A stretch of 64,000 nt of DNA from Escherichia coli. GTDB taxonomy: Bacteria > Pseudomonadota > Gammaproteobacteria > Enterobacterales > Enterobacteriaceae. The stretch is taken from NCBI RefSeq assembly GCF_003018255.1, contig NZ_CP027440.1, one strand, 5' to 3'. This document shows, one piece after another, positions 53-32,101 of this stretch. Under the pieces are notes generated by a model. The model worked only from the letters and a program-made list of their open reading frames with translations, did no database searches and was not told the origin of the DNA. Positions within the stretch are counted from its first letter, which is position 1. Each line of letters begins with the position of its first letter. Position numbers and translations under genes: made by a program.

Positions 53-126
53 TGGAGCGGGCGAAGGGAATCGAACCCTCGTATAGAGCTTGGGAAGCTC
101 TCGTTCTACCATTGAACTACGCCCGC
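53..126 (-). tRNA. glyU: tRNA-Gly (anticodon CCC)
   Basis: Reverse complement reads GCGGGCGTAGTTCAATGGTAGAACGAGAGCTTCCCAAGCTCTATACGAGGGTTCGATTCCCTTCGCCCGCTCCA: acceptor stem pairs, T-arm GGTTCGATTCC, anticodon loop CTTCCCAAG, encoded CCA. Confidence 0.9.
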
Positions 127-981: not shown

Positions 982-1411
982 GACGCCATATCATAGCAGC
1001 CAGCCTCTTGATACCCAATCTCTTGCTTCTGGAAAAACGCGGTAATAGAGAAAGAGGTTAATTTCATTTGGCAAAGGGAAGTATCATCAGCAAAATATTC
1101 ACTGTAGATGTATCGAATTTTCTGACTCATTTACCCTATTTCCCATCCTGATGCGTAATAATCCCAATTTATCACATTGATTTTATCGCCACTCATATTG
1201 ATACGTATCACTGCCCCTATTCAGGGTCCTGTTTCGTATCATATCTGTGTTTTTTTAACATCATCACACTTCCTTCCTCCCTTAACGCTTATCGTCGTTT
1301 CTGGCGTAAATCTTGCCTGCTTAGACTAAATCTTTGCCATAAGAACCAAATGTTCAAATCGAGGGGATTTCTATGGAAGCGCGGGAAGCAACCGCTACAG
1401 GTGAATCATGC

Positions 1412-3670
1412 ATGCGCGTAGATGCCATTGCTAAGGTCACCGGGCGGGCACGATATACTGACGATTATGTTATGGCGGGCATGTGTTACGCGAAATATGT
1501 ACGTAGCCCTATCGCACATGGTTATGCCATAAGTATTAATGATGAACAAGCCAGAAGTTTACCGGGCGTACTGGCGATTTTTACCTGGGAAGATGTGCCT
1601 GATATCCCATTCGCTACAGCTGGGCATGCCTGGACACTTGACGAAAACAAGCGCGATACCGCCGATCGCGCACTGCTAACTCGCCATGTTCGTCATCATG
1701 GTGACGCCGTTGCCATCGTCGTGGCCCGTGATGAACTCACGGCAGAAAAAGCGGCGCAATTGGTCAGCATTGAGTGGCAAGAATTACCCGTTATCACCAC
1801 GCCAGAAGCGGCGCTGGCAGATGACGCTGCACCAATCCATAACGGCGGCAATTTACTAAAACAAAGCTCGATGTCGACGGGTAATGTCCAACAAACAATC
1901 GATGCCGCCGATTACCAGGTGCAGGGGCACTATCAGACTCCCGTTATTCAACATTGTCATATGGAAAGCGTGACATCGCTGGCATGGATGGAGGATGACT
2001 CGCGAATTACCATCGTTTCCAGCACCCAGATCCCGCACATTGTTCGCCGTGTGGTTGGTCAGGCGCTGAATATTCCCTGGTCATGCGTACGAGTCATCAA
2101 ACCGTTTGTCGGTGGCGGTTTTGGTAATAAACAGGATGTACTGGAAGAGCCAATGGCGGCATTCCTGACCAGCAAGCTTGGCGGCATTCCGGTGAAAGTT
2201 TCCCTTAGCCGTGAAGAGTGTTTCCTCGCAACCCGTACCCGCCACGCTTTTACTATTGACGGGCAAATGGGCGTGAACCGCGACGGAACATTGAAAGGTT
2301 ATAGTCTGGATGTTCTGTCTAACACCGGCGCTTATGCATCTCACGGGCACTCCATCGCTTCTGCGGGCGGAAATAAAGTCGCTTACCTTTATCCTCGTTG
2401 TGCCTACGCTTACAGTTCAAAGACCTGCTATACCAACCTCCCCTCGGCTGGTGCGATGCGTGGTTATGGCGCGCCACAAGTCGTATTTGCCGTTGAGTCT
2501 ATGCTTGATGACGCCGCGACAGCGTTAGGTATTGATCCTGTTGAAATTCGTTTACGCAACGCCGCCCGCGAAGGAGATGCTAATCCGCTCACGGGCAAAC
2601 GTATTTACAGCGCAGGGTTGCCGGAGTGTCTTGAAAAAGGCCGGAAAATCTTTGAATGGGAAAAACGCCGTGCAGAGTGCCAGAACCAGCAAGGCAATTT
2701 ACGCCGCGGCGTTGGCGTCGCCTGTTTTAGCTACACCTCTAACACCTGGCCTGTCGGCGTAGAAATAGCAGGCGCGCGCCTGTTGATGAATCAGGATGGA
2801 ACCATCAACGTGCAAAGCGGCGCGACAGAAATCGGTCAGGGGGCCGACACCGTCTTCTCGCAAATGGTAGCAGAAACCGTGGGGGTTCCGGTCAGCGACG
2901 TTCGCGTTATTTCAACCCAAGATACCGACGTTACGCCGTTCGATCCCGGTGCATTTGCCTCACGCCAGAGCTATGTTGCCGCGCCTGCGCTGCGCAGTGC
3001 GGCACTGTTATTAAAGGAGAAAATCATCGCTCATGCCGCTGTCATGCTACATCAGTCAGCGATGAATCTTACCCTGATAAAAGGCCATATCGTGCTGGTT
3101 GAACGACCGGAAGAGCCATTAATGTCGTTAAAAGATTTGGCGATGGACGCCTTCTACCACCCTGAACGCGGCGGGCAGCTCTCTGCCGAAAGCTCCATCA
3201 AAACCACCACTAACCCACCAGCGTTTGGCTGTACCTTTGTTGATCTGACGGTCGATATTGCGCTGTGTAAAGTCACCATCAACCGCATCCTCAACGTTCA
3301 TGATTCGGGCCATATTCTTAATCCGCTACTGGCAGAAGGTCAGGTACACGGCGGAATGGGAATGGGCATTGGCTGGGCGCTATTTGAAGAGATGATCATT
3401 GATGCGAAAAGCGGCGTGGTCCGTAACCCCAATCTGCTGGATTACAAAATGCCGACCATGCCGGATCTGCCACAACTGGAAAGCGCGTTCGTCGAAATCA
3501 ATGAGCCGCAATCCGCATACGGACATAAGTCACTGGGTGAGCCACCAATAATTCCTGTTGCCGCTGCTATTCGTAACGCGGTGAAGATGGCTACCGGTGT
3601 TGCAATCAATACACTGCCGCTGACGCCAAAACGGTTATATGAAGAGTTCCATCTGGCAGGATTGATTTGA
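1412..3670 (+). CDS. xdhA: xanthine dehydrogenase, molybdenum-binding large subunit
   Basis: ORF in track 1373..3670; start trimmed to Met giving 752 aa (MRVDAIAKVTGRARY...), the length I recall for K-12 XdhA; aldehyde oxidase/xanthine dehydrogenase family. Confidence 0.9.
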   Translation: MRVDAIAKVTGRARYTDDYVMAGMCYAKYVRSPIAHGYAISINDEQARSLPGVLAIFTWEDVPDIPFATAGHAWTLDENKRDTADRALLTRHVRHHGDAVAIVVARDELTAEKAAQLVSIEWQELPVITTPEAALADDAAPIHNGGNLLKQSSMSTGNVQQTIDAADYQVQGHYQTPVIQHCHMESVTSLAWMEDDSRITIVSSTQIPHIVRRVVGQALNIPWSCVRVIKPFVGGGFGNKQDVLEEPMAAFLTSKLGGIPVKVSLSREECFLATRTRHAFTIDGQMGVNRDGTLKGYSLDVLSNTGAYASHGHSIASAGGNKVAYLYPRCAYAYSSKTCYTNLPSAGAMRGYGAPQVVFAVESMLDDAATALGIDPVEIRLRNAAREGDANPLTGKRIYSAGLPECLEKGRKIFEWEKRRAECQNQQGNLRRGVGVACFSYTSNTWPVGVEIAGARLLMNQDGTINVQSGATEIGQGADTVFSQMVAETVGVPVSDVRVISTQDTDVTPFDPGAFASRQSYVAAPALRSAALLLKEKIIAHAAVMLHQSAMNLTLIKGHIVLVERPEEPLMSLKDLAMDAFYHPERGGQLSAESSIKTTTNPPAFGCTFVDLTVDIALCKVTINRILNVHDSGHILNPLLAEGQVHGGMGMGIGWALFEEMIIDAKSGVVRNPNLLDYKMPTMPDLPQLESAFVEINEPQSAYGHKSLGEPPIIPVAAAIRNAVKMATGVAINTLPLTPKRLYEEFHLAGLI

Positions 3671-3680
3671 GGATAACATC

Positions 3681-4559
3681 ATGTTTGATTTTGCTTCTTA
3701 CCATCGCGCAGCAACCCTTGCCGATGCCATCAACCTGCTGGCTGACAACCCGCAGGCCAAACTGCTCGCCGGTGGCACTGACGTACTGATTCAGCTCCAC
3801 CATCACAATGACCGTTATCGCCATATTGTTGATATTCATAATCTGGCGGAGCTGCGGGGAATTACGCTGGCGGAAGATGGCTCACTACGTATCGGCTCTG
3901 CAACGACATTTACCCAGCTCATTGAAGATCCTGTAACTCAACGTCATCTCCCGGCGTTATGTGCTGCGGCCTCATCCATTGCCGGACCGCAGATCCGTAA
4001 CGTCGCTACCTACGGTGGAAATATTTGCAACGGTGCCACCAGCGCAGATTCTGCCACGCCAACGCTAATTTATGACGCGAAACTGGAGATCCACTCCCCG
4101 CGCGGTGTTCGTTTCGTCCCGATTAATGGCTTTCACACCGGGCCGGGCAAAGTGTCTCTTGAGCATGACGAAATCCTTGTCGCCTTTCATTTTCCGCCCC
4201 AGCCGAAAGAACACGCGGGCAGCGCGCATTTTAAATATGCCATGCGCGACGCAATGGATATTTCAACGATTGGCTGCGCCGCACATTGCCAACTGGATAA
4301 CGGCAATTTCAGCGAATTACGCCTGGCATTTGGTGTTGCCGCGCCAACGCCAATTCGCTGCCAACATGCCGAACAGACTGCACAAAATGCGCCATTAAAC
4401 CTGCAAACGCTGGAAGCCATCAGCGAATCAGTCCTGCAAGATGTCGCCCCGCGTTCGTCATGGCGGGCCAGTAAAGAGTTTCGTCTGCATCTCATCCAGA
4501 CGATGACCAAAAAAGTGATTAGCGAAGCCGTCGCCGCGGCGGGGGGAAAATTGCAATGA
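3681..4559 (+). CDS. xdhB: xanthine dehydrogenase, FAD-binding subunit
   Basis: 292 aa ORF directly downstream of xdhA; CO dehydrogenase flavoprotein-like; stop overlaps xdhC start (ATGA). Confidence 0.9.
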
Positions 4560-5035
4560 ATCACAGCGAAACAATTACCATCGAATGCACCATTAACGGG
4601 ATACCTTTTCAGCTTCACGCCGCACCAGGCACGCCGCTCTCGGAATTACTCCGCGAACAAGGACTGCTAAGTGTCAAACAAGGGTGCTGCGTGGGTGAAT
4701 GTGGTGCCTGTACGGTGCTGGTCGACGGCACAGCAATAGACAGTTGCTTATACCTTGCCGCCTGGGCTGAAGGAAAAGAGATCCGCACGCTGGAAGGTGA
4801 AGCGAAAGGCGGAAAACTTTCTCATGTTCAGCAGGCTTATGCGAAATCCGGCGCAGTGCAGTGCGGGTTTTGTACGCCGGGCCTGATTATGGCTACCACG
4901 GCAATGCTGGCGAAACCACGCGAGAAGCCATTAACCATTACGGAAATTCGTCGTGGACTGGCGGGAAATCTTTGTCGCTGCACGGGGTATCAGATGATTG
5001 TAAATACAGTTCTGGATTGCGAGAAAACGAAGTAA
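4556..5035 (+). CDS. xdhC: xanthine dehydrogenase, [2Fe-2S] iron-sulfur subunit
   Basis: 159 aa; 2Fe-2S cysteine motifs [11 protein letters not shown] and CGFCTPG. Confidence 0.9.
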
Positions 5036-5074: not shown

Positions 5075-6853
5075 TTATGTGTTTAACAACTCATATTTCT
5101 TAATCTTGCGATAGAGCGTAGCAATGCCGATGCCCAGTTCATCAGCAACTTCCTTCTTGCTGTTATGACGTGAAAGCGCCTCGCGGATCATTTGCTTTTC
5201 CATCTCCTCCAGCGCCGTGCCGCCCGCATCATCGAGTGCCAGGTGCGCCTCACTGACCTCTGTTACATCACTTTGCTCCGTTGTGCCATTATTCAGCAGA
5301 TTTGGCGGCAATAGCGTGCTGTCGATAACTTCACCTGAAGGAACCACGTTAACCAGATATTCCATCAAATTGCTTAACTCGCGCAGGTTTCCGGGCCAAC
5401 GATGCTTACGCAATATTTCGACGACATCGGGAGCAATGCCCGGATAAACCGATCCCAGACGACGGGTATGCAGATGTAAAAAGTAATGCACCAGTAGTTC
5501 AATATCTTCCTGACGTTCACGCAGCGGTGGCAGAGTTATCGGGATAACATTAAGTCGGTAGAAGAGATCTTCGCGGAATTTACCTTCGGAAATGAACTGG
5601 GCCAAATTCTGGTTAGTTGCAGAAATGATGCGAATGTCGACTTGTATTGGGCTACTGGCACCAATCGGCAGAATTTCACGTGCCTCAATAGCGCGCAGTA
5701 ATTTAGCCTGCAACATTAATGGCATATCACCTATTTCATCGAGAAACAGCGTGCCCGTATTCGCCGCCTGAATCAACCCTGTTTTACCGTTGGCAGAAGC
5801 GCCAGTAAATGCGCCTTTAACATAACCGAACAGTTCGCTCTCCAGAAGCTGCTCCGGAATCGCGGCACAGTTGATAGCAATAAAAGGTTTATTCCGTCTT
5901 CCGCTCAACTTATGGATTGCACGGGCGACGACTTCTTTACCCGTGCCGCTTTCGCCAACCACCATAACGCTGGATGGGCTGGGTGCAATACGGCTAATGA
6001 GTCGTTTTAATTGCCGCATAACACGGCACTCGCCAACCAATTGTTCAATATGCGGTTCATCAGGTGCATTTGCTACAGAAAAACTGGTATGCGATTGGTG
6101 AAACGCCATTAAAAATAATTGTCGGCCCTGAATGTTATGCAATTGACCAATGATTAATTCACTTTTATCGTCCCACGAAACAATATGCTGCATATGTCCA
6201 TGGGTAAAATTACTCTCAAATGTTAATGGTCTGAAACGAACAGGTTTCCCAATAATATTATTTTGCACAACACCGAGTGTTTTTAAGGCAGTCTGATTAA
6301 CAAACTGAACCCGATTTTCGTCATCAACAACTAAAACGCCCTGATCCATATTATCGATCATGGTCGCGAATATTTTACTGATGTTATCTCCTGGCCCCTG
6401 ATCCTCCAGAAGTTTCGAAACAAAAATGGTGGATATATGGCGAACGTAATCAGAAAATTCGCGTAAATTATCACTGATATGTTCTTGTTGCTCGTGGGTA
6501 ACGGCAATCAAACTTATCACCCCAACACAACGATCCTGTAAAATGACAGGCGTACCCAGAAATGCTTTTTCGCGGCAATTTTCTTTACTATCGCAACCTT
6601 CACAAAGGGGATCGAAGCGAGACTGTGTCACAACTTTTTCAGTTTTCGTTTCCAGGACGTGGCGGAGCAGGCGTGAGTTGCCGCTCAACTGGCGACCAAG
6701 AAACTTCCCATACGCGCCCGTTCCGGCGACGCGACACAAGTTTTCATCAACGATCTCAACCTCAAGCTGCAAAACGCTGGCAAGCATTCTGGCAAAACGC
6801 TGAATTGTCGGTTGAATTTGCATCAATACTGACTGCGTAGTAGCAAGCTCCAT
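5075..6853 (-). CDS. ygeV: sigma-54-dependent transcriptional activator (bacterial enhancer-binding protein)
   Basis: 592 aa; Walker A GESGTGKE, sigma-54 contact motif GAFTGA, C-terminal HTH (IATLYRKIKKY), N-terminal sensory region. Confidence 0.9.
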   Translation of the reverse strand: MELATTQSVLMQIQPTIQRFARMLASVLQLEVEIVDENLCRVAGTGAYGKFLGRQLSGNSRLLRHVLETKTEKVVTQSRFDPLCEGCDSKENCREKAFLGTPVILQDRCVGVISLIAVTHEQQEHISDNLREFSDYVRHISTIFVSKLLEDQGPGDNISKIFATMIDNMDQGVLVVDDENRVQFVNQTALKTLGVVQNNIIGKPVRFRPLTFESNFTHGHMQHIVSWDDKSELIIGQLHNIQGRQLFLMAFHQSHTSFSVANAPDEPHIEQLVGECRVMRQLKRLISRIAPSPSSVMVVGESGTGKEVVARAIHKLSGRRNKPFIAINCAAIPEQLLESELFGYVKGAFTGASANGKTGLIQAANTGTLFLDEIGDMPLMLQAKLLRAIEAREILPIGASSPIQVDIRIISATNQNLAQFISEGKFREDLFYRLNVIPITLPPLRERQEDIELLVHYFLHLHTRRLGSVYPGIAPDVVEILRKHRWPGNLRELSNLMEYLVNVVPSGEVIDSTLLPPNLLNNGTTEQSDVTEVSEAHLALDDAGGTALEEMEKQMIREALSRHNSKKEVADELGIGIATLYRKIKKYELLNT

Positions 6854-7222
6854 AGCTTTACCTTCCAGACTTACTTAAAAGTCGATCATTGAAGACGTTG
6901 ATGGTTCATAGATCATGATGATATTAACTCAGGCGAAATTGGCTTTGATAAAAACATAAGATTTTTATCACTTTCTAATGAAATTATGGAAGAGATATCA
7001 CATTTCTATATCAATATGAGAATTACGGCGGTGAGTTTATCAAACTGAAGAGAGATCGCCTGTCCCTTTATCTTATTTCTGATACTTAGCAGCAAATAAA
7101 TAACGCGATAAAAAAAGCCAAACGTTTTCGTATTTTACAAACAACCAGAAGCTGGCATCAATTTGTGATCAACCCCACACATTATCCGTCAAATTAGTCT
7201 TTTGCAGCCCCGTGGATAATTC

Positions 7223-7238
7223 TGGCACACTTATTGTT
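7223..7238 (+). promoter_or_regulatory. candidate sigma-54 -24/-12 promoter upstream of ygeW
   Basis: TGGCACacttaTTGTT: exact -24 TGGCAC, correct spacing, -12 TTGT instead of TTGC; about 90 nt upstream of the ygeW ATG. Confidence 0.35.
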
Positions 7239-12527: not shown

Positions 12528-13460
12528 ATGAGTAAGAAAATTGTTCTCGCCCTGGGCGGGAATGCGCTGGGCGATGACCTGGCCGGACAAATGAAAGCGG
12601 TAAAAATTACTTCTCAGGCAATTGTTGATTTAATTGCCCAGGGACATGAAGTTATCGTCACTCACGGTAACGGGCCACAGGTGGGCATGATTAACCAGGC
12701 CTTTGAAGCTGCCGCAAAAACTGAAGCGCACTCGCCAATGCTGCCGATGTCTGTCTGTGTTGCCTTAAGCCAGGGTTATATTGGTTACGATCTACAAAAC
12801 GCATTAAGAGAAGAACTGCTTTCTCGTGGCATTAATAAACCTGTAGCAACGCTGGTTACCCAGGTCGAAGTCGATGCTAACGACCCGGCATTCCTCAACC
12901 CGACCAAGCCGATCGGTTCGTTCTTTACCGAGCAGGAAGCAGAGCAACTGACAAAACAGGGTTACACTCTGAAAGAAGATGCTGGTCGCGGCTATCGCCG
13001 TGTTGTTGCCTCGCCGAAACCGGTTGATATTATTGAAAAAGAGACGGTAAAAGCGCTGGTAGAAGCAGGCCAGGTAGTGATCACCGTTGGCGGTGGTGGC
13101 ATTCCCGTTATTCGTGAAGGGAACCATCTGCGCGGTGCCAGTGCGGTTATCGATAAAGACTGGGCCAGCGCCCGTTTAGCAGAAATGATTGATGCCGATA
13201 TGCTGATCATTCTGACTGCGGTAGAAAAAGTGGCCATTAACTTCGGTAAAGAGAATGAACAGTGGCTCGATCGCCTGTCATTAAGTGATGCTGAACGCTT
13301 TATCGAAGAAGGTCATTTTGCGAAAGGTTCTATGCTGCCTAAAGTGGAAGCTGCCGCCTCGTTTGCTCGCTCTCGCGCAGGTCGTGAAGCACTGATTACC
13401 GTATTGAGCAAAGCGAAAGAAGGGATTGAAGGCAAAACCGGAACGGTGATTTGTCAGTAA
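12528..13460 (+). CDS. yqeA: carbamate kinase-like protein
   Basis: 310 aa; amino-acid kinase family N-terminus KIVLALGGNALG. Confidence 0.85.
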   Translation: MSKKIVLALGGNALGDDLAGQMKAVKITSQAIVDLIAQGHEVIVTHGNGPQVGMINQAFEAAAKTEAHSPMLPMSVCVALSQGYIGYDLQNALREELLSRGINKPVATLVTQVEVDANDPAFLNPTKPIGSFFTEQEAEQLTKQGYTLKEDAGRGYRRVVASPKPVDIIEKETVKALVEAGQVVITVGGGGIPVIREGNHLRGASAVIDKDWASARLAEMIDADMLIILTAVEKVAINFGKENEQWLDRLSLSDAERFIEEGHFAKGSMLPKVEAAASFARSRAGREALITVLSKAKEGIEGKTGTVICQ

Positions 13461-13466
13461 TTTAAA

Positions 13467-13497
13467 GGCCGGGTGGGTAATACCATCCGGCCATTTT
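13467..13497 (+). terminator. intrinsic terminator after yqeA
   Basis: GGCCGGGTGG-gtaata-CCATCCGGCC hairpin followed by ATTTTC. Confidence 0.5.
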
Positions 13498-13500
13498 CAT

Positions 13501-15126
13501 TTAAGCCACTTCCAGCACTTCTTTCGTCGCTTTAACGCCCTGATGCATCAACATCATTAACGCCTCAAGTACGCCGCCGCCAATCGCCCGGGCTTTATCA
13601 GAAACGCTGGTGAAATCAGCCGTTTCACCACGAGGATCGATATCACCAATTTTAAAACCACCGACCACTGCCAGTCCGTCGTTCAACAAGCCACGCACCA
13701 TCCCCGTCAACGGTGCTTTAATTTCATGCTCACCAATCCAGGCAATCACATCGCCCTCTTTCACCAGATCGCCTAATTTCACGTTGGATCGCATAATGCC
13801 TGCAGCAGGAGCACGGATCACCCGTCGGGTGGTATGCCCCATAATATTGCCAGGAACACCGGTATTCTCCTGCGCACAACCAGAGTAAATCACCTGACCG
13901 AGCCAGTGCCCGCGATTTGTTTCAATTACCGCATGACAATCCTTCCCTGCAGTAAAGCCCGGCCCAAGCGCGATTGTTACTGGTGCCATATCTGCCCGCG
14001 TCCCCAAATTCTGTTTCGCCAGAATAGCGTCCACCACGCAAAGCGGTTTCAGTTCATCAAGCAATGAACAGGCGGGATCTACTATCACAGGGATGAATCC
14101 GCATTCGGTAAGTTTCATCGCCTCCGCAGAGCTGGTTGCCAGGCGGGCGGTGACGCCTTCGACCGTCATTTCGCCATCGAACACGGCCTGGGCAAATGCC
14201 ACGGTACAACGAATCACTGTCGGTTTTTCCACTTCCAGCATGATCACTTTAAAACCCGCATGATACAGACGTAGCGCTACACCACTGGCGATATCCCCCG
14301 CACCACGAATCACCACCAGCTGGTGTCCGGAAGGATGAGAAGGCTTCATCATCAGCCCACCCGGCGCGTTATTTTTCACCTGTAATATTTCTGCCAGCAC
14401 GCTGATGGCGATCTCCTGCGGCGTTTCCGCACCTATGTTGTAACCAACGGGCGCATGTAAACGGGCAATATGTTCTTCAGCCACGCCTTTCTCACGCAAT
14501 TGGCGCAGGAAAAGCTGAACCTTGCGGCGACTTGCCAGCAACCCCAGCCATGCAATGGGTTGTTCAATGAGTTTGTCGAGGGCTTCACGATCCTGATTAT
14601 TCGTGGCAATCAGGACAAAATTATCAGGGCGAATATCCAGTGCTTCCACTGCCGCACCAAACGACTCAGCATGGAGAAGCGTGGTTGATGGTGGGAATAG
14701 TTCAGGATTGAGGCTTTCGCGATAAATATCGGCAACGGCGATATCAAATCCTAATAGCGCCGCACTCTGGGCTATCGCCCGGTTGACATGCCCCGCGCCA
14801 ATCAACACCAGACGTGGACGCATACCATGGACGCTGATAAATACTGACATTGCACCTCCACAATCTGACCCGACAGCATCCGCACCGTTACGAGCCATAC
14901 GTCCATGGAATAATCGCGGCTTACGTTCCTGCAATGCCTGAAGCGACTCTTCAATCACCTTCCGCTCAACCATTCCGCCACCAATTGTACCGACGATAGA
15001 GCCATCGGCGCGCACTAACATTTGTGCAGAATGGCGGGGGGTTGAGCCTCGGCTATCAACAATTTGCGCCATCGCAAACGGACAATTTTGCTCTTCGAGT
15101 TTTGCAGCCTCTGTGAAAATATTCAT
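13501..15126 (-). CDS. yqeB: XdhC/CoxI-family molybdenum-hydroxylase accessory protein
   Basis: 541 aa; Rossmann-like LVLIGAGHV; family recalled as selenium-dependent molybdenum hydroxylase system protein YqeB. Confidence 0.8.
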   Translation of the reverse strand: MNIFTEAAKLEEQNCPFAMAQIVDSRGSTPRHSAQMLVRADGSIVGTIGGGMVERKVIEESLQALQERKPRLFHGRMARNGADAVGSDCGGAMSVFISVHGMRPRLVLIGAGHVNRAIAQSAALLGFDIAVADIYRESLNPELFPPSTTLLHAESFGAAVEALDIRPDNFVLIATNNQDREALDKLIEQPIAWLGLLASRRKVQLFLRQLREKGVAEEHIARLHAPVGYNIGAETPQEIAISVLAEILQVKNNAPGGLMMKPSHPSGHQLVVIRGAGDIASGVALRLYHAGFKVIMLEVEKPTVIRCTVAFAQAVFDGEMTVEGVTARLATSSAEAMKLTECGFIPVIVDPACSLLDELKPLCVVDAILAKQNLGTRADMAPVTIALGPGFTAGKDCHAVIETNRGHWLGQVIYSGCAQENTGVPGNIMGHTTRRVIRAPAAGIMRSNVKLGDLVKEGDVIAWIGEHEIKAPLTGMVRGLLNDGLAVVGGFKIGDIDPRGETADFTSVSDKARAIGGGVLEALMMLMHQGVKATKEVLEVA

Positions 15127-15173
15127 ACCAACCTCAATGGATATCCTTTCAGTAACCCGGAATACCCGGGCCG

Positions 15174-15944
15174 CTAATTCACAAATCTGCGCGCGATTGC
15201 AGGATGTTCTTGTATATCGCCCAGCCAGATTGCCTCTACGTCGTGTTGTTGCAGCGGTTGAAGGAGCTCGCTTTGCGCAATCGCATTCTCACATTGAGAA
15301 AAACGGTTAATGAACCAGACTCGCCGACAACCTTGCGGTACGTTTTTAAACGCCCCCTGAGGGTGGCGAACCAGCGCAACGAGATCGCTCAGTTGCAAGG
15401 TTGCATCAGGTGTTAACCCGGTAATATCAGCAAACTGCGACCAGCGATGGACATTTTCTGTGCTCACTTTCGCACCCAAAATATGTCCTCCCATCACAGC
15501 AATCACGCAGCAACTGCTTTTAGGTATGCAAGGTTCGTGCTCATCAGGCGCTTTTAACGGCATTCCACGCGAGCCATCTGCCTCAATGAGAATTACGTCA
15601 CACTCTGATCGTTGTACCAGTGCATCAATCGCTTCTGGCGTAAATCCCTGCACTTTTCCCTGGTTCGCTTTCCAGCTGTGAAAACAAAATGAAATGGGGG
15701 ATATAAAAGACGCATGAGGAAGCATGGCGGGATCACGACAGAAAACCACGGGCCAGTGAGATGTTGGCATAAACATATGTGTCGTCGTAGTGATTAATAC
15801 ACGCCTGCCGCTCGCCTGGAACAGTTCTGCCAGCCAAAAAAGCAAGCTGGTTTTCCCCCCAGCACCAACAACAGAAATCACAGTGGGACGTTTCTGCGCG
15901 CCTAAATCAATGAATAATGCCGATGGGTCAATTATACTTTTCAC
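15174..15944 (-). CDS. yqeC: putative selenium-dependent molybdenum hydroxylase accessory protein (P-loop)
   Basis: 256 aa; P-loop-like VVGAGGKTSLLFWL. Confidence 0.75.
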   Translation of the reverse strand: MKSIIDPSALFIDLGAQKRPTVISVVGAGGKTSLLFWLAELFQASGRRVLITTTTHMFMPTSHWPVVFCRDPAMLPHASFISPISFCFHSWKANQGKVQGFTPEAIDALVQRSECDVILIEADGSRGMPLKAPDEHEPCIPKSSCCVIAVMGGHILGAKVSTENVHRWSQFADITGLTPDATLQLSDLVALVRHPQGAFKNVPQGCRRVWFINRFSQCENAIAQSELLQPLQQHDVEAIWLGDIQEHPAIARRFVN

Positions 15945-16047
15945 GCGTCTTTATGGACCTCTCTGGGATAAATTACCCTCAACTTAATCCATCAGGAAGT
16001 AACGCAATTATCAGGCGTTATTAGCTCCTGTAAATAATGGAATCACT

Positions 16048-16626
16048 ATGTCAGCCATCGACTGTATAATTACCGCCGCAGGATTATCATCAAGAATGGG
16101 GCAATGGAAAATGATGTTACCCTGGCAACAGGGAACAATTCTTGATACAAGTATCAAAAATGCGTTGCAGTTTTGTAGCCGAATTATTTTAGTCACCGGC
16201 TATCGTGGTAATGAACTGCACGAACGTTATGCGAACCAGAGCAATATCACTATTATCCACAACCCAGATTATGCGCAGGGTTTACTGACATCAGTAAAGG
16301 CCGCAGTACCCGCGGTGCAAACAGAACATTGTTTTCTCACCCACGGAGATATGCCAACCCTCACCATCGATATTTTTAGAAAAATCTGGTCGTTACGAAA
16401 TGATGGCGCAATACTGCCACTCCATAATGGCATCCCCGGCCATCCGATTTTAGTGTCAAAACCATGCCTGATGCAGGCAATCCAGCGACCCAATGTCACC
16501 AATATGCGTCAGGCACTCCTTATGGGAGAACATTATTCCGTCGAAATAGAAAATGCAGAAATAATTTTAGATATTGATACTCCTGACGACTTTATTACAG
16601 CGAAGAAAAGGTATACTGAAATTTAG
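16048..16626 (+). CDS. mocA: molybdenum cofactor cytidylyltransferase
   Basis: 192 aa; nucleotidyltransferase N-terminal motif ITAAGLSSRMG; divergent from yqeC. Confidence 0.85.
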   Translation: MSAIDCIITAAGLSSRMGQWKMMLPWQQGTILDTSIKNALQFCSRIILVTGYRGNELHERYANQSNITIIHNPDYAQGLLTSVKAAVPAVQTEHCFLTHGDMPTLTIDIFRKIWSLRNDGAILPLHNGIPGHPILVSKPCLMQAIQRPNVTNMRQALLMGEHYSVEIENAEIILDIDTPDDFITAKKRYTEI

Positions 16627-16692: not shown

Positions 16693-16859
16693 GAATCACT
16701 GATTTTGAGAAAAGAGAAAAAGTGATAAATGGGCTGGCAATAATAATTTTCAGGAGTGATTTTAATTCTCATTTGGCACCTGTGAGTTCATTCACAAAAA
16801 GCCATTAAGTTTCGAGCCGCCTCACATTTTTTTATATTTCCCGCCAAACCTGGCAAGAG

Positions 16860-16875
16860 TGGTGCGATTGTTGCT
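16860..16875 (+). promoter_or_regulatory. candidate sigma-54 -24/-12 promoter upstream of ygfK
   Basis: TGGtgCGattgTTGCT: GG-N10-GC spacing with TTGC -12 element; about 75 nt upstream of the ygfK ATG. Confidence 0.35.
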
Positions 16876-16947: not shown

Positions 16948-19900
16948 ATGGGGGATATTATGCGTCCCATTCCGTTTGAGGAACTTTTGACGCGCATATT
17001 TGATGAATACCAACAACAACGCTCAATCTTTGGTATTCCCGAGCAACAGTTTTACTCACCCGTAAAAGGTAAAACTGTTAGCGTCTTCGGTGAAACCTGT
17101 GCCACTCCCGTCGGCCCTGCCGCTGGCCCGCACACGCAGCTCGCGCAAAATATTGTCACTTCCTGGCTGACTGGCGGACGCTTCATCGAACTAAAAACCG
17201 TCCAAATTCTTGACCGCCTGGAGCTGGAAAAGCCCTGTATCGATGCCGAAGACGAGTGCTTTAACACCGAATGGTCTACCGAATTTACCCTGCTTAAAGC
17301 CTGGGATGAATACCTCAAAGCCTGGTTTGCCCTGCACCTTCTCGAAGCGATGTTCCAGCCTTCTGATTCCTGTAAATCGTTCATCTTTAATATGAGCGTC
17401 GGTTACAACCTCGAAGGTATTAAGCAACCGCCGATGCAGCAGTTCATCGACAATATGATGGACGCATCTGACCATCCGAAATTCGCTCAATACCGCGATG
17501 CACTTAATAAGCTACTCCAGGATGACGCATTTTTAGCCCGCCACGGCTTACAGGAAAAACGCGAAAGCTTGCAAGCCTTACCCGCTCGCATCCCCACCAG
17601 CATGGTACAAGGGGTTACCCTCTCCACCATGCACGGCTGTCCTCCGCATGAAATCGAAGCCATTTGCCGCTACATGCTGGAAGAAAAAGGGCTCAACACC
17701 TTTGTGAAACTCAACCCGACCTTACTGGGGTACGCGCGTGTTCGTGAGATCCTCGATGTCTGCGGTTTCGGTTACATCGGCTTAAAAGAAGAGTCATTTG
17801 ATCACGACCTCAAGCTGACGCAAGCACTGGAAATGCTGGAACGCCTGATGGCACTGGCAAAAGAAAAATCACTCGGCTTTGGCGTAAAACTGACTAACAC
17901 TCTCGGCACCATTAATAACAAAGGCGCACTGCCCGGTGAAGAGATGTATATGTCAGGCCGTGCGCTGTTCCCGCTCTCCATCAACGTTGCAGCAGTTCTC
18001 TCTCGCGCCTTTGACGGCAAACTGCCCATTTCTTATTCCGGTGGTGCCAGTCAGCTGACTATCCGCGATATTTTTGATACTGGTATTCGCCCTATTACTA
18101 TGGCAACCGACCTGCTGAAACCTGGCGGCTATCTGCGCTTAAGTGCCTGCATGCGCGAGCTGGAAGGCTCAGATGCCTGGGAGCTTAACCACGTTGACGT
18201 CGAACGACTGAACAGACTGGCAGCAGACGCGTTAACCATGGAATACACCCAGAAACACTGGAAGCCAGAAGAGCGTATTGAAGTGGCTGAAGACCTGCCG
18301 CTGACCGATTGCTACGTTGCCCCCTGTGTTACTGCCTGCGCTATCAAGCAAGATATTCCGGAATACATCCGTCTGCTTGGCGAACACCGCTATGCCGACG
18401 CGCTGGAACTCATCTATCAACGCAACGCCCTGCCCGCCATTACCGGTCATATTTGCGATCACCAGTGCCAATACAACTGTACCCGCCTGGATTACGACAG
18501 TGCGCTGAATATCCGCGAACTGAAAAAAGTCGCGCTGGAAAAAGGTTGGGATGAATATAAGCAACGCTGGCACAAACCAGCCGGTTCTGGTTCACGCCAT
18601 CCGGTTGCCGTGATTGGTGCAGGTCCGGCGGGTCTGGCAGCAGGTTACTTCCTTGCCAGAGCGGGCCATCCGGTTACGCTGTTTGAACGCGAAGCCAATG
18701 CGGGCGGCGTGGTGAAAAATATCATTCCTCAGTTCCGTATTCCTGCAGAGTTAATTCAGCACGATATCGATTTTGTTGCCGCTCACGGCGTAAAATTTGA
18801 GTATGGCTGCTCACCGGATCTGACCGTTGAACAGTTAAAAAATCAGGGCTTCCACTATGTTCTGATTGCCACCGGCACTGATAAAAATAGCGGTGTGAAA
18901 CTGGCGGGCGACAACCAAAATGTCTGGAAATCACTCCCCTTCCTGCGTGAATACAACAAGGGCACAGCGCTCAAGCTGGGCAAACATGTGGTCGTTGTCG
19001 GGGCGGGTAACACGGCAATGGACTGCGCTCGTGCGGCGTTACGCGTTCCAGGCGTAGAAAAAGCAACGGTCGTTTACCGTCGTTCACTGCAAGAGATGCC
19101 AGCATGGCGCGAAGAGTATGAAGAAGCGTTGCACGACGGCGTGGAGTTCCGTTTCCTGAATAATCCGGAACGTTTCGATGCTGATGGCACCTTAACCTTG
19201 CGCGTTATGTCGCTTGGCGAACCTGATGAGAAAGGTCGTCGCCGTCCGGTTGAAACCAACGAAACAGTAACACTGCATGTAGACAGCCTGATCACCGCCA
19301 TTGGTGAACAGCAGGATACTGAAGCCCTGAATGCGATGGGCGTGCCGCTGGACAAAAACGGCTGGCCAGACGTCGACCATAATGGCGAAACGCGTCTGAG
19401 TGACGTCTTTATGATCGGCGACGTACAGCGCGGACCATCCTCCATTGTCGCTGCTGTCGGAACCGCGCGTCGGGCGACCGATGCCATCCTGAGTCGGGAA
19501 AATATCCGTTCCCACCAGAACGATAAATACTGGAATAACGTCAATCCGGCGGAAATCTATCAACGTAAAGGCGATATCTCTGTCACTCTGGTGAACAGTG
19601 ACGATCGTGACGCGTTTGTCGCGCAGGAAGCCGCTCGCTGCCTTGAATGTAACTACGTTTGCAGCAAGTGTGTGGATGTCTGCCCGAACCGCGCCAACGT
19701 ATCCATTGCGGTCCCAGGCTTCCAGAACCGTTTCCAGACGCTGCATCTCGACGCCTACTGCAACGAATGCGGCAACTGCGCCCAATTCTGCCCGTGGAAC
19801 GGTAAACCGTACAAAGACAAAATCACCGTCTTCAGCCTGTCGCAAGACTTTGATAACAGCAGCAACCCAGGCTTCCTTGTGGAAGATTGCCGGGTACGCG

Positions 19901-21427: not shown

Positions 21428-22207
21428 ATGATTGAACAATTTTTCAGACCCGACTCTGTCGAACAGGCGCTGGAACTGAAGCGCCGCTACCAGGATGAAG
21501 CCGTCTGGTTCGCCGGGGGCAGCAAACTCAACGCTACACCAACCCGTACCGATAAAAAGATTGCCATTTCCTTACAGGATCTGGAACTGGACTGGGTTGA
21601 CTGGGATAACGGTGCACTGCGGATTGGCGCGATGTCTCGCTTGCAAACACTGCGTGATGCGCGATTTATTCCTGCAGCACTGCGTGAAGCTCTCGGTTTT
21701 GTTTACTCACGCCATGTTCGTAATCAGTCGACCATTGGTGGTGAAATTGCCGCCCGGCAAGAAGAGTCAGTGCTGCTTCCCGTCCTGCTGGCACTGGATG
21801 CTGAACTGGTTTTTGGCAACGGCGAAACTCTGTCAATTGAGGAGTACCTGGCCTGCCCATGCGATCGCCTGCTAACCGAAATCATCATTAAAGATCCGTA
21901 TCGCACCTGTGCGACTCGCAAAATTAGCCGTTCTCAGGCAGGTTTAACCGTCGTGACGGCAGCCGTTGCAATAACAGACCACGACGGTATGCGAATTGCG
22001 CTGGATGGCGTAGCCAGTAAAGCACTGCGTCTGCACGATGTTGAAAAACAAAACCTGGAAGGTGATGCCCTTGAACAGGCTGTCGCCAACGCCATTTTCC
22101 CGCAGGAAGATTTGCGGGGCAGCGTGGCCTATAAACGCTATATCACGGGAGTTCTGGTAGCCGACCTTTATGCCGACTGCCAACAGGCTGGGGAGGAAGC
22201 CGTATGA
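21428..22207 (+). CDS. ygfM: FAD-binding molybdopterin dehydrogenase subunit-like protein
   Basis: 259 aa; CO dehydrogenase flavoprotein-like; stop overlaps xdhD start. Confidence 0.8.
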   Translation: MIEQFFRPDSVEQALELKRRYQDEAVWFAGGSKLNATPTRTDKKIAISLQDLELDWVDWDNGALRIGAMSRLQTLRDARFIPAALREALGFVYSRHVRNQSTIGGEIAARQEESVLLPVLLALDAELVFGNGETLSIEEYLACPCDRLLTEIIIKDPYRTCATRKISRSQAGLTVVTAAVAITDHDGMRIALDGVASKALRLHDVEKQNLEGDALEQAVANAIFPQEDLRGSVAYKRYITGVLVADLYADCQQAGEEAV

Positions 22208-25074
22208 TCATCCACTTTACTTTAAATGGCACGCCCCAGGAGCTAACCGTTAATCCTGGTGAAAACGTGCAAAAGCTGTTGTTTAACATGGGAATGCACT
22301 CTGTACGCAACAGCGATGATGGCTTTGGGTTTGCCGGTTCTGACGCAATTATCTTTAACGGTAATATCGTTAACGCGTCCTTGCTTATCGCCGCACAGTT
22401 AGAGAAGGCAGATATTCGTACCGCAGAATCTCTGGGCAAATGGAATGAGTTAAGTCTGGTTCAACAGGCCATGGTTGATGTTGGCGTGGTGCAGTCTGGT
22501 TATAACGATCCAGCTGCGGCTCTGATTATCACCGATCTTCTCGATCGCATCGACGCACCTACCCGCGAAGAGATCGACGACGCGCTCTCAGGTCTGTTTA
22601 GCCGCGATGCTGGCTGGCAGCAATACTATCAGGTCATTGAACTGGCGGTTGCACGTAAAAATAATCCGCAGGCCACCATTGATATCGCTCCGACTTTCCG
22701 TGACGACCTTGAAGTCATTGGCAAGCATTATCCTAAAACTGATGCCGCGAAAATGGTGCAGGCGAAACCCTGCTATGTTGAAGATCGCGTAACGGCTGAC
22801 GCCTGCGTCATTAAAATGTTACGTAGCCCACACGCTCACGCACTGATTACTCATCTGGATGTCAGCAAAGCTGAAGCCTTACCGGGCGTCGTTCACGTTA
22901 TTACTCACCTGAATTGCCCGGATATTTACTATACCCCGGGTGGTCAGAGCGCACCGGAACCGTCACCGCTTGACCGCCGAATGTTCGGCAAGAAAATGCG
23001 TCACGTCGGCGATCGCGTTGCTGCGGTCGTCGCTGAAAGTGAAGACATTGCGCTCGAAGCACTGAAGCTCATCGACGTTGAATATGAAGTGCTTAAGCCG
23101 GTAATGTCGATTGACGAGGCAATGGCGGAAGATGCGCCTGTCGTGCACGATGAACCGGTGGTGTATGTTGCTGGTGCACCAGATACTCTGGAGGAAGATA
23201 ACTGTCATGCAGCCCAGCGCGGCGAGCATATGATCATCAACTTCCCGATCGGTTCTCGCCCACGCAAAAATATCGCTGCCAGTATTCATGGTCATATTGG
23301 TGATATGGACAAAGGCTTTGCCGATGCCGATGTGATCATTGAGCGAACCTATAACTCAACGCAGGCGCAGCAGTGCCCGACTGAAACACATATCTGCTTT
23401 ACCCGTATGGACGGCGATCGTCTGGTGATCCACGCCTCCACCCAGGTACCATGGCACTTACGCCGCCAGGTCGCGCGCCTCGTGGGCATGAAACAACATA
23501 AAGTTCATGTCATTAAAGAACGTGTAGGCGGCGGTTTTGGCTCTAAACAGGACATCCTGCTGGAAGAAGTGTGCGCCTGGGCAACTTGCGTGACCGGGCG
23601 TCCGGTACTTTTCCGCTACACCCGTGAAGAAGAGTTTATTGCTAACACCTCTCGTCACGTAGCGAAAGTCACCGTCAAACTGGGCGCGAAAAAAGATGGT
23701 CGCCTGACGGCAGTGAAGATGGATTTCCGCGCCAACACTGGTCCTTACGGTAACCACTCACTCACCGTACCGTGTAACGGACCGGCGCTGTCGCTGCCGT
23801 TATATCCATGCGATAACGTCGATTTCCAGGTCACCACCTACTACAGCAACATTTGCCCAAATGGTGCTTATCAGGGTTATGGCGCACCGAAAGGTAACTT
23901 CGCTATCACCATGGCGTTAGCGGAACTGGCGGAACAATTGCAGATCGACCAACTGGAAATTATTGAACGTAATCGTGTACACGAAGGGCAGGAGTTGAAA
24001 ATTCTCGGTGCGATTGGTGAAGGTAAAGCGCCGACATCCGTTCCTTCCGCCGCCAGCTGCGCACTGGAAGAGATCCTGCGTCAGGGTCGCGAGATGATCC
24101 AATGGTCTTCACCAAAACCGCAAAATGGTGACTGGCACATCGGTCGCGGCGTCGCCATTATCATGCAGAAATCAGGGATCCCAGATATCGATCAGGCTAA
24201 CTGCATGATCAAACTGGAATCAGACGGTACCTTTATCGTTCATTCTGGCGGTGCGGATATTGGTACTGGTTTGGATACTGTGGTGACGAAACTGGCAGCA
24301 GAAGTGCTGCACTGCCCCCCGCAGGACGTGCATGTTATCTCCGGTGATACCGATCATGCGTTGTTTGATAAAGGCGCATATGCCTCGTCCGGTACTTGCT
24401 TCTCGGGTAACGCTGCGCGTTTGGCAGCGGAAAATCTGCGGGAGAAAATCCTGTTCCACGGCGCGCAAATGTTGGGTGAGCCAGTGGCAGATGTTCAACT
24501 AGCAACGCCGGGCGTCGTTCGCGGCAAGAAAGGCGAAGTTAGTTTCGGAGAGATAGCCCATAAAGGCGAAACCGGCACCGGCTTTGGTTCACTGGTGGGA
24601 ACTGGCAGTTATATCACGCCTGATTTCGCCTTCCCGTATGGCGCAAACTTCGCTGAAGTTGCCGTCAACACGCGTACGGGTGAAATCCGCCTGGATAAAT
24701 TCTACGCCTTGCTGGACTGCGGTACACCGGTCAATCCAGAGTTAGCGCTGGGACAAATCTACGGTGCCACCCTGCGTGCTATCGGCCACAGTATGAGCGA
24801 AGAGATCATTTATGACGCCGAAGGTCACCCGTTAACGCGTGATTTACGCAGTTACGGCGCACCGAAAATTGGTGACATTCCGCGTGATTTCCGCGCTGTG
24901 CTGGTGCCGAGCGACGATAAAGTCGGCCCATTCGGGGCGAAATCGATCTCGGAAATCGGTGTAAATGGCGCCGCTCCGGCGATTGCTACCGCAATTCACG
25001 ATGCCTGCGGCATCTGGTTACGCGAATGGCATTTCACACCGGAGAAAATACTCACCGCGCTGGAAAAAATATAA
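22204..25074 (+). CDS. xdhD: molybdenum hydroxylase large subunit (xanthine dehydrogenase family) with N-terminal extension
   Basis: 956 aa; Mo-pterin hydroxylase family with a Cys-poor ferredoxin-like N-terminal region. Confidence 0.85.
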   Translation: MIIHFTLNGTPQELTVNPGENVQKLLFNMGMHSVRNSDDGFGFAGSDAIIFNGNIVNASLLIAAQLEKADIRTAESLGKWNELSLVQQAMVDVGVVQSGYNDPAAALIITDLLDRIDAPTREEIDDALSGLFSRDAGWQQYYQVIELAVARKNNPQATIDIAPTFRDDLEVIGKHYPKTDAAKMVQAKPCYVEDRVTADACVIKMLRSPHAHALITHLDVSKAEALPGVVHVITHLNCPDIYYTPGGQSAPEPSPLDRRMFGKKMRHVGDRVAAVVAESEDIALEALKLIDVEYEVLKPVMSIDEAMAEDAPVVHDEPVVYVAGAPDTLEEDNCHAAQRGEHMIINFPIGSRPRKNIAASIHGHIGDMDKGFADADVIIERTYNSTQAQQCPTETHICFTRMDGDRLVIHASTQVPWHLRRQVARLVGMKQHKVHVIKERVGGGFGSKQDILLEEVCAWATCVTGRPVLFRYTREEEFIANTSRHVAKVTVKLGAKKDGRLTAVKMDFRANTGPYGNHSLTVPCNGPALSLPLYPCDNVDFQVTTYYSNICPNGAYQGYGAPKGNFAITMALAELAEQLQIDQLEIIERNRVHEGQELKILGAIGEGKAPTSVPSAASCALEEILRQGREMIQWSSPKPQNGDWHIGRGVAIIMQKSGIPDIDQANCMIKLESDGTFIVHSGGADIGTGLDTVVTKLAAEVLHCPPQDVHVISGDTDHALFDKGAYASSGTCFSGNAARLAAENLREKILFHGAQMLGEPVADVQLATPGVVRGKKGEVSFGEIAHKGETGTGFGSLVGTGSYITPDFAFPYGANFAEVAVNTRTGEIRLDKFYALLDCGTPVNPELALGQIYGATLRAIGHSMSEEIIYDAEGHPLTRDLRSYGAPKIGDIPRDFRAVLVPSDDKVGPFGAKSISEIGVNGAAPAIATAIHDACGIWLREWHFTPEKILTALEKI

Positions 25075-31819: not shown

Positions 31820-32101
31820 TTGCATCCCTTTCATTTAATGAGTTATGTCTTCTCAAATTTCGCGATGCAATAAATGGGCATGTATTAGGTAGCATGGCCG
31901 ATTTAATTATAATTTTGCGACTGAGTTCAAATTATTGCCCCTCAATCTATGCAGCTTTCATTATTTCAACATTGCCGATCAAAAGAATGCTATCCAGATA
32001 AAAACGATTAAATGCGAGAGTGCGACATGCCAGAATGATTAATGAAATATCAATATGAGAAAATTACAGATAATTCCATTGTCAGGTTCTCTTCTCATTT
32101 T

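Follow-up and report, generated by a model that had tools for sequence, protein, structure and literature searches.

The yqeB-yqeC locus and its genomic setting

The window that we analyzed, a stretch of 64 kb, carries yqeB and yqeC on the same strand and separated by 47 nucleotides, within the xdh/yge/ygf purine and uric-acid cluster of Escherichia coli (Table 1). Over the 2.7 kb that contain the pair, identity to an E. coli chromosome is 100%. Of 5426 complete E. coli genomes, 5173 have this stretch, annotated as yqeB plus yqeC, and RefSeq names both products selenium cofactor biosynthesis proteins. The pair is a real, ordinary, and already known case. selD is also present in E. coli.

Table 1. 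Positions in the window of the genes, protein domains, and regulatory features discussed in the text
Feature	Position	Strand	Basis or description
sigma-54 site at xdhA	1301-1317		Exact match to ChIP-seq motif (PMC4591121)
xdhABC	1373..5035	+	NCBIfam; xanthine dehydrogenase, possible second client
ygeV	5075..6853	-	RefSeq; NCBIfam sigma-54 activator families; sigma-54-dependent activator of the cluster
sigma-54 site at ygeW	7222-7238		Exact match to ChIP-seq motif (PMC4591121)
Hairpin between yqeA and yqeB	13467..13492	.	G+C rich; 10-pair stem with 8 G-C pairs, T-rich tail
yqeB	13501..15126	-	541 aa, ATG start; complete ORF, RefSeq, NCBIfam, Pfam
TIGR03309 domain (YqeB residues 271-526)	13549..14316	-	Rossmann-like subdomain plus biotinyl/lipoyl-like barrel
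XdhC_C Rossmann domain (YqeB residues 106-247)	14386..14811	-	Pfam PF13478, E 1e-32
XdhC_CoxI domain (YqeB residues 12-74)	14905..15093	-	Pfam PF02625, E 1e-19; aligns with 2we7 and 3on5
yqeC	15174..15944	-	256 aa, GTG start; predicted SIMIBI-class P-loop NTPase
sigma-54 promoter inside yqeC, driving yqeB	15527..15543	-	Exact match to published site TGAGCACGAACCTTGCA
Walker A of YqeC (G27-A-G-G-K-T32)	15849..15866	-	Read from sequence
sigma-70-like promoter candidate 5' of yqeC	16007..16034	-	TTTACA-16-GATAAT, 10/12; region shared with mocA
mocA (ygfJ), molybdenum cofactor cytidylyltransferase	16048..16626	+	TIGR03310, 215.9 bits (cut-off 186); RefSeq; divergent from yqeC
sigma-54 site 5' of ygfK	16859..16875	+	Exact match to ChIP-seq motif (PMC4591121)
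ygfM-xdhD	21428..25074	+	NCBIfam TIGR03312, TIGR03313; FAD subunit and Fe-S/Mo subunit
sigma-54 site of ygfT	31866-31882	-	2 mismatches

The two protein families had been put forward as markers of selenium-dependent molybdenum hydroxylase systems, and this is borne out by the RefSeq names, by published work, and by NCBIfam scores far above the cut-offs. YqeB scores 414.5 bits against TIGR03309 (curated equivalog cut-off, 220), covering profile positions 1 to 256 of 256, and YqeC scores 237.6 bits against TIGR03172 (cut-off, 73.05) and matches Pfam PF19842 at 5e-42. The labile-selenium hypothesis of Haft & Self (2008) was derived in part from the 23-gene purine locus of E. coli, and TIGR03309 was reported solely in selD-positive genomes (PMC2276186). 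In later comparative work, the "Se-cofactor trait" has as its signature the combination of E. coli YqeB, YqeC, and SelD (PMC5029168), and the E. coli SelD protein was the marker query in a study of Clostridium sporogenes (bioRxiv 2025.04.24.650524). Because the link between yqeB/yqeC and selenium dates in print from 2008 and is present in current annotation, it adds nothing new by itself.

A sigma-54 promoter inside yqeC drives yqeB. When this promoter was mutated, YqeB protein was no longer detectable (PMC4591121), and in both E. coli and Clostridioides difficile the sigma-54 promoter serves yqeB and not yqeC (PMC4591121; PMC11448449). Sigma-70-like matches in the region between yqeC and mocA are no commoner than in shuffled sequence, and the candidate listed there is a consensus match only. 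The published sigma-54 site of ygfT does not occur in its exact form in the window, which holds a version with two mismatches. The hairpin that separates yqeB from its convergent neighbor yqeA is likely a bidirectional terminator.

YqeB combines an XdhC-like half with the selenium marker

Pfam and NCBIfam assignments show the yqeB product to be a fusion of an XdhC-like Moco chaperone half with a TIGR03309 selenium-marker half. The N-terminal half matches PDB entry 2we7 with an overall E value of 3.6e-27; Pfam and PDB comparison both make it XdhC-like, and yet it is not classed as an XdhC equivalog, as YqeB stays below the cut-offs of the NCBIfam equivalog models TIGR02964 (110.6 versus 161.6) and NF045664 (201.7 versus 350). 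The description of YqeB as XdhC/CoxI-like in the original prediction therefore holds for the N-terminal half only, because the XdhC Pfam domains cover residues 12 to 247, and it does not extend to the C-terminal half. It is this C-terminal TIGR03309 domain, and not the XdhC-like half, that is the selenium marker.

The TIGR03309 half has no family in Pfam and no solved relative by profile search of the PDB, in which its profile returned generic Rossmann and lipoyl-domain matches and nothing further. It is 50 to 76% identical to homologs across phyla. In YqeB this half is cysteine free and rich in Arg, Lys, and Asp; at 26 positions of the family alignment, 95% or more of the sequences share a polar residue, and no cysteine is conserved. 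Conserved residues in this half of YqeB include R306, K371, H407, K492, D495, and R499. A cysteine relay within TIGR03309 was rejected, since no cysteine column in that alignment exceeds 57%.

YqeC is predicted to be a SIMIBI-class P-loop NTPase

YqeC had been described as a P-loop protein, which agrees with its intact Walker A motif and its above-cut-off matches to TIGR03172 and PF19842. Residues G27, G29, G30, and K31 of the P-loop are invariant across 105 diverse homologs, and the protein also contains E121-A-D-G124, a putative Walker B of the ExxG type. About 70% of the family carries an NKxD guanine motif, at the position of which E. coli YqeC has N-R-F-S. Searched as a single sequence, YqeC matched nothing in the PDB, even at an E value of 10; as a profile, it gave only weak matches to SIMIBI P-loop proteins (FtsY and ArsA), and no significant sequence match between YqeC and G3E proteins was found. 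We predict that YqeC adopts the SIMIBI-class NTPase fold. As deletion of yqeC in C. difficile produced no phenotype (PMC11448449), YqeC may be dispensable or may not be selenium specific.

Gene fusions and neighborhoods in other organisms

Fusions connect the three proteins in other organisms. YqeC is fused to MocA, in both orders, in 14 of 150 YqeC cluster representatives and to TIGR03309 in 2 of the 150, one of which also carries MocA, while 20 of 120 TIGR03309 matches are fused to XdhC and 1 of 120 is fused to MocA. With TIGR03309 as the anchor, neighborhoods were counted at 28 genus-level loci. YqeC lies within 10 kb of the anchor at 24 of the 28 loci, within 300 nucleotides at 23, and on the same strand at 23; an XdhC-like gene is found at 23 loci, an XdhD-like gene at 11, SelD at 4, and MocA at 11, the last by a single-sequence query of lower sensitivity. 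One metagenomic operon has the order TusA-like, Csd/SCL, Se_S_carrier, SelD, YqeC-MocA-YqeB fusion, and XdhD-like. At the E. coli locus, the XdhC-like module belongs to the same polypeptide as TIGR03309, and xdhABC, xdhD-ygfM, and mocA are all located in the cluster.

Client enzymes and labile selenium

XdhD (2117 bits against TIGR03313) and XdhA (1484 bits against PRK09970) are assigned by NCBIfam models and are xanthine-oxidase-family Mo subunits lacking a selenocysteine codon. Formate-dependent urate degradation in E. coli was reportedly described by Iwadate and Kato in 2019. In E. coli, XdhD-YgfM acts as a urate reductase and yields 2,8-dioxopurine (PMC12507026). xdhABC lacks a dedicated gene for an XdhC-type chaperone, and YqeB was proposed as a chaperone common to XdhD and XdhABC (PMC2997495). 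Choosing the selenium-using hydroxylase by sequence proved uninformative, as XdhD and XdhA are about equally similar to the selenium-containing enzyme 3hrd and to sulfur enzymes; judged by such comparison, selenium-dependent and sulfur-dependent hydroxylases could not be separated. Neither YgfK nor YgfT is a good candidate for carrying a selenium ligand.

Experiments in relatives bear on the nature of the selenium. The C. sporogenes 2,8-dioxopurine dehydrogenase (DOPDH) purified from a selD mutant had no measurable activity (bioRxiv 2025.04.24.650524), and C. difficile lost growth on xanthine and urate in both yqeB and selD mutants (PMC11448449). The literature searched yielded no test in E. 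coli of the selenium content of XdhD or XdhA or of their dependence on selD, yqeB, or yqeC. The original prediction of a labile selenium ligand instead of selenocysteine matches the hypothesis of Haft & Self (2008) and agrees with the clostridial orthologs, and we regard it as supported. We consider it likely that yqeB and yqeC, with mocA, encode the accessory machinery that supplies a selenium-bearing molybdenum cofactor of the cytidine-dinucleotide type (MCD) to a Mo hydroxylase of the cluster, the selenium being a labile Mo ligand derived from SelD selenophosphate. XdhD-YgfM is the most likely client enzyme, and XdhABC is perhaps a second one.

Alternative explanations

That one of the enzymes of the cluster should be a genuine selenoprotein, its selenocysteine encoded by UGA, is so improbable as to be negligible. 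The machinery for selenocysteine exists in E. coli, and nothing in the sequence speaks for its use here. The absence of in-frame TGA codons, noted originally for the hydroxylase and Fe-S flavoprotein ORFs, extends to all 18 CDS of the cluster, which contain no internal stop codon (xdhA, xdhD, ygfK, ygfM, and ygfT included). Read-through of the TGA-terminated cluster genes gives at most 36 codons, and cryptic selenocysteine was rejected because no extension across TGA was found upstream or downstream. A search of the entire window at Rfam gathering thresholds gave no SECIS element; among the structured RNAs sought, riboswitches included, it returned 6S RNA, Sib RNA, and a tRNA and nothing else, and in this neighborhood TGA occurs in frame only at the frameshift site of prfB. 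[quoted passage not shown] The enzymology argues against such a role. Purified YgfK, active as the recombinant protein from BL21, proved to be an NADPH:2,8-dioxopurine oxidoreductase for which selenate is neither required nor stimulatory, and the substrate reduced by XdhD-YgfM is urate (PMC12507026).

The E. coli pair might instead mature a plain sulfur-bearing MCD, with YqeB acting as a shared XdhC-type chaperone of XdhABC and XdhD and selenium being irrelevant here. The N-terminal half of YqeB is genuinely XdhC-like, the proposal of a shared chaperone did not mention selenium (PMC2997495), and active XdhD-YgfM has been obtained from E. coli in ordinary medium (PMC12507026). We nevertheless think this improbable, since the TIGR03309 half is so well conserved across phyla, is reported only in selD-positive genomes, and occurs in operons alongside SelD and genes for selenium carriers, and since the clostridial enzyme with XdhD activity depends on selD. 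Ordinary growth media, moreover, contain trace selenium. Less improbable, although we still hold it to be unlikely, is that YqeC is not selenium specific but assists MocA, as an NTPase, in the synthesis or delivery of MCD, comparable to MobB with MobA, so that the selenium step belongs to the TIGR03309 half of YqeB only. The YqeC-MocA fusions in both orders, the divergent arrangement of yqeC and mocA here, and the sigma-54 promoter that serves yqeB and not yqeC in E. coli and C. difficile are all consistent with this, as are the contrasting deletions in C. difficile, where loss of yqeB had a phenotype and loss of yqeC had none (PMC11448449), and the suggestion of Peng et al. that YqeB or YqeC singly may serve selenium-unrelated processes (PMC5029168). 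However, YqeC adjoins TIGR03309 at 23 of the 28 diverse loci, and the two are in some cases fused. The less sensitive single-sequence search placed MocA at just 11 of these loci.

Proposed mechanism

Under the reading that we prefer, in which yqeB, yqeC, and mocA supply a selenium-bearing MCD, MocA would form MCD from Mo-MPT and CTP, and nucleotide binding or hydrolysis by YqeC would either move the cofactor on to YqeB once MocA has made it or gate that transfer, in parallel with MobB and MobA or with UreG, HypB, CooC, and MeaB and their metal centers. The XdhC-like half of YqeB would then hold the cofactor while the TIGR03309 half exchanged the equatorial oxo (or sulfido) ligand for selenium taken straight from selenophosphate, with release of phosphate, and YqeB would finally place the finished cofactor into the apo-enzyme. 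Expression is coupled to nitrogen and purine catabolism through the sigma-54 promoters, including the yqeC-internal one for yqeB. We infer the sequence in which the cofactor is handed on, selenophosphate as the direct donor, and the exchange chemistry. We suggest only tentatively, and with more doubt than confidence, that MocA, YqeC, and YqeB constitute a single assembly line for MCD and that the cysteine-free TIGR03309 domain represents a new kind of selenotransferase, taking selenium from selenophosphate without a persulfide- or perselenide-type relay.

Significance and comparison with known systems

The entry of selenium into molybdenum hydroxylases is, according to workers in the field, the least understood route of selenium incorporation (PMC11448449), and through these enzymes gut bacteria degrade urate and purines anaerobically, a process relevant to gout and to the urate load of the host (bioRxiv 2025.04.24.650524; PMC12507026). 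E. coli has all of the parts in one sigma-54-controlled cluster, together with a client enzyme of known activity, and the fusion and fold data provide concrete, mutable hypotheses for YqeC and for each half of YqeB. If the proposal is true, E. coli would be a tractable system in which to reconstitute the last uncharacterized route of selenium use, because the substrate of XdhD is now defined.

Among the accessory families of Haft & Self (TIGR03309, the EF2563 family; TIGR03172/PF19842), the E. coli proteins are reference members and show no difference. The nearest likeness of YqeC is to the SIMIBI-class NTPases that serve metal centers or cofactor synthesis (UreG, HypB, CooC, and MeaB; MobB with MobA). 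YqeB shares with the chaperones XdhC of Rhodobacter capsulatus and PaoD of E. coli both XdhC Pfam domains, and with them the expected role of binding Moco, presenting it for ligand exchange, and inserting it. It differs from them in its additional 280-residue TIGR03309 module, for which comparison with XdhC_C shows no specific relationship (hhalign probability, 5%), and the donor would be selenophosphate rather than the persulfide of a cysteine desulfurase. The proven Se-Mo hydroxylases are the nicotinate dehydrogenase of Eubacterium barkeri (3hrd), clostridial XDH and purine hydroxylase, and the DOPDH of C. sporogenes. The last of these catalyzes the same reaction as E. coli XdhD, although the E. 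coli enzyme works with NADH and an FAD subunit, YgfM, both of which its clostridial counterpart lacks (PMC12507026).

Identity of the pair and its neighborhood

The window is E. coli chromosome; positions 13401-16100 match strain JNE23-011 at 100% identity, and of the 5426 complete E. coli genomes, 5173 carry this stretch. Two complete minus-strand ORFs lie exactly where the yqeB-yqeC pair had been placed, with a 47-nt gap between them. RefSeq names their products [quoted passage not shown] and "selenium cofactor biosynthesis protein YqeC" and sets them inside a purine and urate cluster, with xdhABC, ygeV, ygeW, ygeX (dpaL), ygeY, hyuA, and yqeA on one flank and mocA (divergent from yqeC), ygfK, ssnA, ygfM, xdhD, xanQ, guaD, ghxQ, ygfS, ygfT, and uacT on the other. 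MocA, YgfK, SsnA, YgfM, XdhD, YgeW, and YgeY score above the cutoffs of their own cluster-specific NCBIfam models; the "selenium metabolism-linked" names of YgeY and SsnA are based on co-occurrence, not chemistry.

Features in and around the yqeB-yqeC locus (window positions unless stated)
Feature	Position	Strand	Remark
tRNA	56-126	-	tRNA-Gly per matching RefSeq record; ordinary E. coli feature
Sigma-54 site before xdhA	1301-1317	+	exact copy of ChIP-seq site
Sigma-54 site before ygeW	7222-7238	+	exact copy of ChIP-seq site
yqeB	13501-15126	-	complete ORF, 541 aa
XdhC_CoxI	YqeB residues 12-74		N-terminal half; Pfam
XdhC_C	YqeB residues 106-247		N-terminal half; Pfam
yqeC-yqeB spacer	15127-15173	-	short inverted repeat CCCGG-GTATT-CCGGG directly past yqeC stop codon
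yqeC	15174-15944	-	complete ORF, 256 aa, GTG start
YqeC residues 213-216	15296-15307	-	N-R-F-S
Sigma-54 site inside yqeC	15527-15543	-	drives yqeB; exact match to published site
Sigma-54 site before ygfK	16859-16875	+	exact copy of ChIP-seq site
ygfK	16948-20046	+	still "putative selenate reductase subunit" in RefSeq and NCBIfam
Sigma-54 site before ygfT	31866-31882	-	2-mismatch version of ChIP-seq site
prfB frameshift site	37090-37105	-	AGGGGG..CTTTGAC; prfB start 37168
6S RNA (ssrS)	55848-56031	+	ordinary E. coli feature
Sib antitoxin RNA	56680-56830	+	ordinary E. coli feature

Probable selenium dependence

The original prediction took the pair as markers of selenium-dependent molybdenum hydroxylase systems, and both proteins scored far above the relevant cutoffs: YqeC, a PF19842 member in Pfam, reached 237.6 bits against TIGR03172 (cutoff, 73), and YqeB residues 271-526 reached 414.5 bits against TIGR03309 (cutoff, 220). 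Haft and Self (2008; PMC2276186) had already proposed labile selenium in molybdenum hydroxylases, reporting that TIGR03309 occurs only where the genome also has selD, that it is often joined to XdhC, that 10 of the 11 best E. coli phylogenetic-profile partners lie inside this 23-gene locus, and that YqeC and YgfJ (MocA) are candidate further accessory proteins. The selenium link is thus not a discovery, having been published since 2008 and built into annotation.

Likewise, the hydroxylase and Fe-S flavoprotein ORFs were correctly described as free of in-frame TGA: none of the 18 cluster coding sequences contains an internal stop codon. Beyond the terminal TGA of xdhA, xdhB, ygfM, ygfS, and ygfT, read-through stays open for 1, 36, 5, 5, and 0 further codons, respectively, and no long open stretch extends 5' of any start across a TGA in the cluster genes. 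No SECIS element was detected in the 64 kb at Rfam gathering thresholds, the sole Rfam matches being 6S RNA, Sib RNA, and a tRNA. Together, the absence of internal stops, the short read-through, and the lack of SECIS exclude selenocysteine with near certainty. A single in-frame TGA occurs close to the cluster, at codon 26 of prfB; it belongs to the classical +1 frameshift site and is unrelated to selenocysteine.

In E. coli, XdhD and YgfM copurify and convert urate to 2,8-dioxopurine with NADH (PMC12507026). Recent biochemistry assigns the following step to YgfK, showing it to be an NADPH:2,8-dioxopurine oxidoreductase indifferent to selenate, which makes its reading as a selenate reductase very improbable. 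The Clostridium sporogenes 2,8-dioxopurine dehydrogenase purified from a selD mutant was intact but showed no measurable activity; YqeB/C and SelD were present in all urate-degrading gut strains examined (bioRxiv 2025.04.24.650524). Our literature search found no E. coli study that had measured selenium content or dependence on selD, yqeB, or yqeC. As far as current knowledge goes, the labile-selenium reading is right, with the client's selenium dependence suggested by orthologues.

Domain architecture and conserved motifs

The description of YqeB as XdhC/CoxI-like holds for half of the protein, since the Pfam XdhC domains are confined to the N-terminal half; the C-terminal half had no significant Pfam match. 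The N-terminal half can be aligned to the XdhC-family structures 2we7 and 3on5, yet it does not reach the XdhC equivalog cutoffs. The selenium marker is the TIGR03309 half, not the XdhC-like half. It is unusually conserved: 96 homologues are 50 to 76% identical to the E. coli form, 26 polar residues are kept in 95% or more of the aligned sequences, and cysteine does not exceed 57% in any column.

For YqeC, we aligned 105 diverse single-domain homologues drawn from 4785 representative clusters. The P-loop assignment was upheld: G27-x-G-G-K-T32 is (near-)invariant, as are T52-T-T-T55, K97, G100, E121-A-D-G124, K131-A-P, H136-E-P138, R167, and N213. About 70% of family members carry the guanine-specificity motif N-K-x-D at positions 213 to 216. 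All 104 gammaproteobacterial relatives examined have N-R/Q-x-S, N-G-D-Y, or similar there, and nucleotide preference may therefore differ in that clade.

Fusions and conserved neighborhoods

Fusion to MocA, with either partner first, occurs in 14 of the best 150 YqeC cluster representatives and fusion to TIGR03309 in 2, one of the latter being a 777-aa YqeC-MocA-TIGR03309 triple fusion (metagenomic locus L003, 7638-9971); in one further representative, a ModE-type (DNA-binding) domain precedes YqeC at the N terminus. Fused YqeC representatives include P0147, P0149, P0162, P0175, P0188, P0203, P0216, P0238, P0184, and P0228. The best 120 TIGR03309 hits include 20 fusions to XdhC and 1 to MocA. 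These fusions of YqeC to MocA, to TIGR03309, and to both point to MocA, YqeC, and YqeB forming one physical unit.

Taking one genome per GTDB species gave 80 TIGR03309 loci, reduced to 26 at genus level and supplemented by the metagenomic operon and Moorella (n = 28); taxa include Enterobacterales, Vibrionaceae, Rhodocyclaceae, Endozoicomonas, Spirochaetota, Collinsella, several Bacillota, Anaerolineales, and an assembly labelled Lutibacter. YqeC lies within 10 kb of TIGR03309 in 24/28 loci, within 300 nt in 23/28, and on the same strand in 23/28. An XdhC-like gene occurs in 23 loci (fused to TIGR03309 in 13), MocA and an XdhD-like gene in 11 each, and SelD in 4. L003 (4338-12573) looks like a complete selenium-to-enzyme operon, encoding in order a TusA-like protein, a cysteine desulfurase/selenocysteine lyase, Se_S_carrier, SelD, the YqeC-MocA-YqeB fusion, and an XdhD-like hydroxylase. 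The Moorella locus holds XdhC in split form, YqeC fused to MocA, YqeB, and genes of the XdhD-like, YgeX, HyuA, and YgeW types.

Sigma-54 control

Nitrogen limitation induces the promoter inside yqeC, and mutating its sigma-54 site makes YqeB protein undetectable; the ChIP-seq authors saw nothing to connect YqeB with nitrogen starvation (PMC4591121). Purine nitrogen scavenging is that missing link. Given the sigma-54 sites and the presence within the cluster of ygeV, which encodes a sigma-54 activator (RefSeq, NCBIfam), the entire urate locus looks like a single sigma-54 regulon. Similarly, in Clostridioides difficile a SigL promoter precedes yqeB, not yqeC; that study credited neither protein with a recognizable domain or mechanism (PMC11448449).

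Proposed mechanism

This analysis itself shows only which genes these are, their folds, fusions, and adjacency, and that selenocysteine signals are absent; the selenium-exchange chemistry is our proposal, as is the following mechanism. MocA would make the cytidine-dinucleotide molybdenum cofactor, whose transfer YqeC, a predicted SIMIBI NTPase, would escort or gate. The XdhC-like half of YqeB would hold the cofactor while a molybdenum ligand is exchanged for selenium in the cysteine-free, Arg/Lys/Asp-rich TIGR03309 half, with selenophosphate as the donor and phosphate as the leaving group, and YqeB would then insert the selenium-bearing cofactor into apo-XdhD, perhaps also into apo-XdhA.

The main rival point concerns YqeC, which might be a MocA accessory with no selenium-specific role; this agrees with most of the data, and we regard it as possible, if doubtful. 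That yqeB and yqeC serve only sulfur in E. coli is unlikely, fitting poorly with the strong conservation of a domain otherwise reported only in selD-positive genomes. We favor YqeC as an escort or gate, which would account for both the fusions and a dispensable phenotype. Beyond the mechanism of selenium insertion, the locus is of low interest; for that mechanism, the fold, motif, and fusion data yield testable hypotheses. The role proposed for YqeC resembles those of other SIMIBI assembly NTPases, and that of MobB beside MobA.
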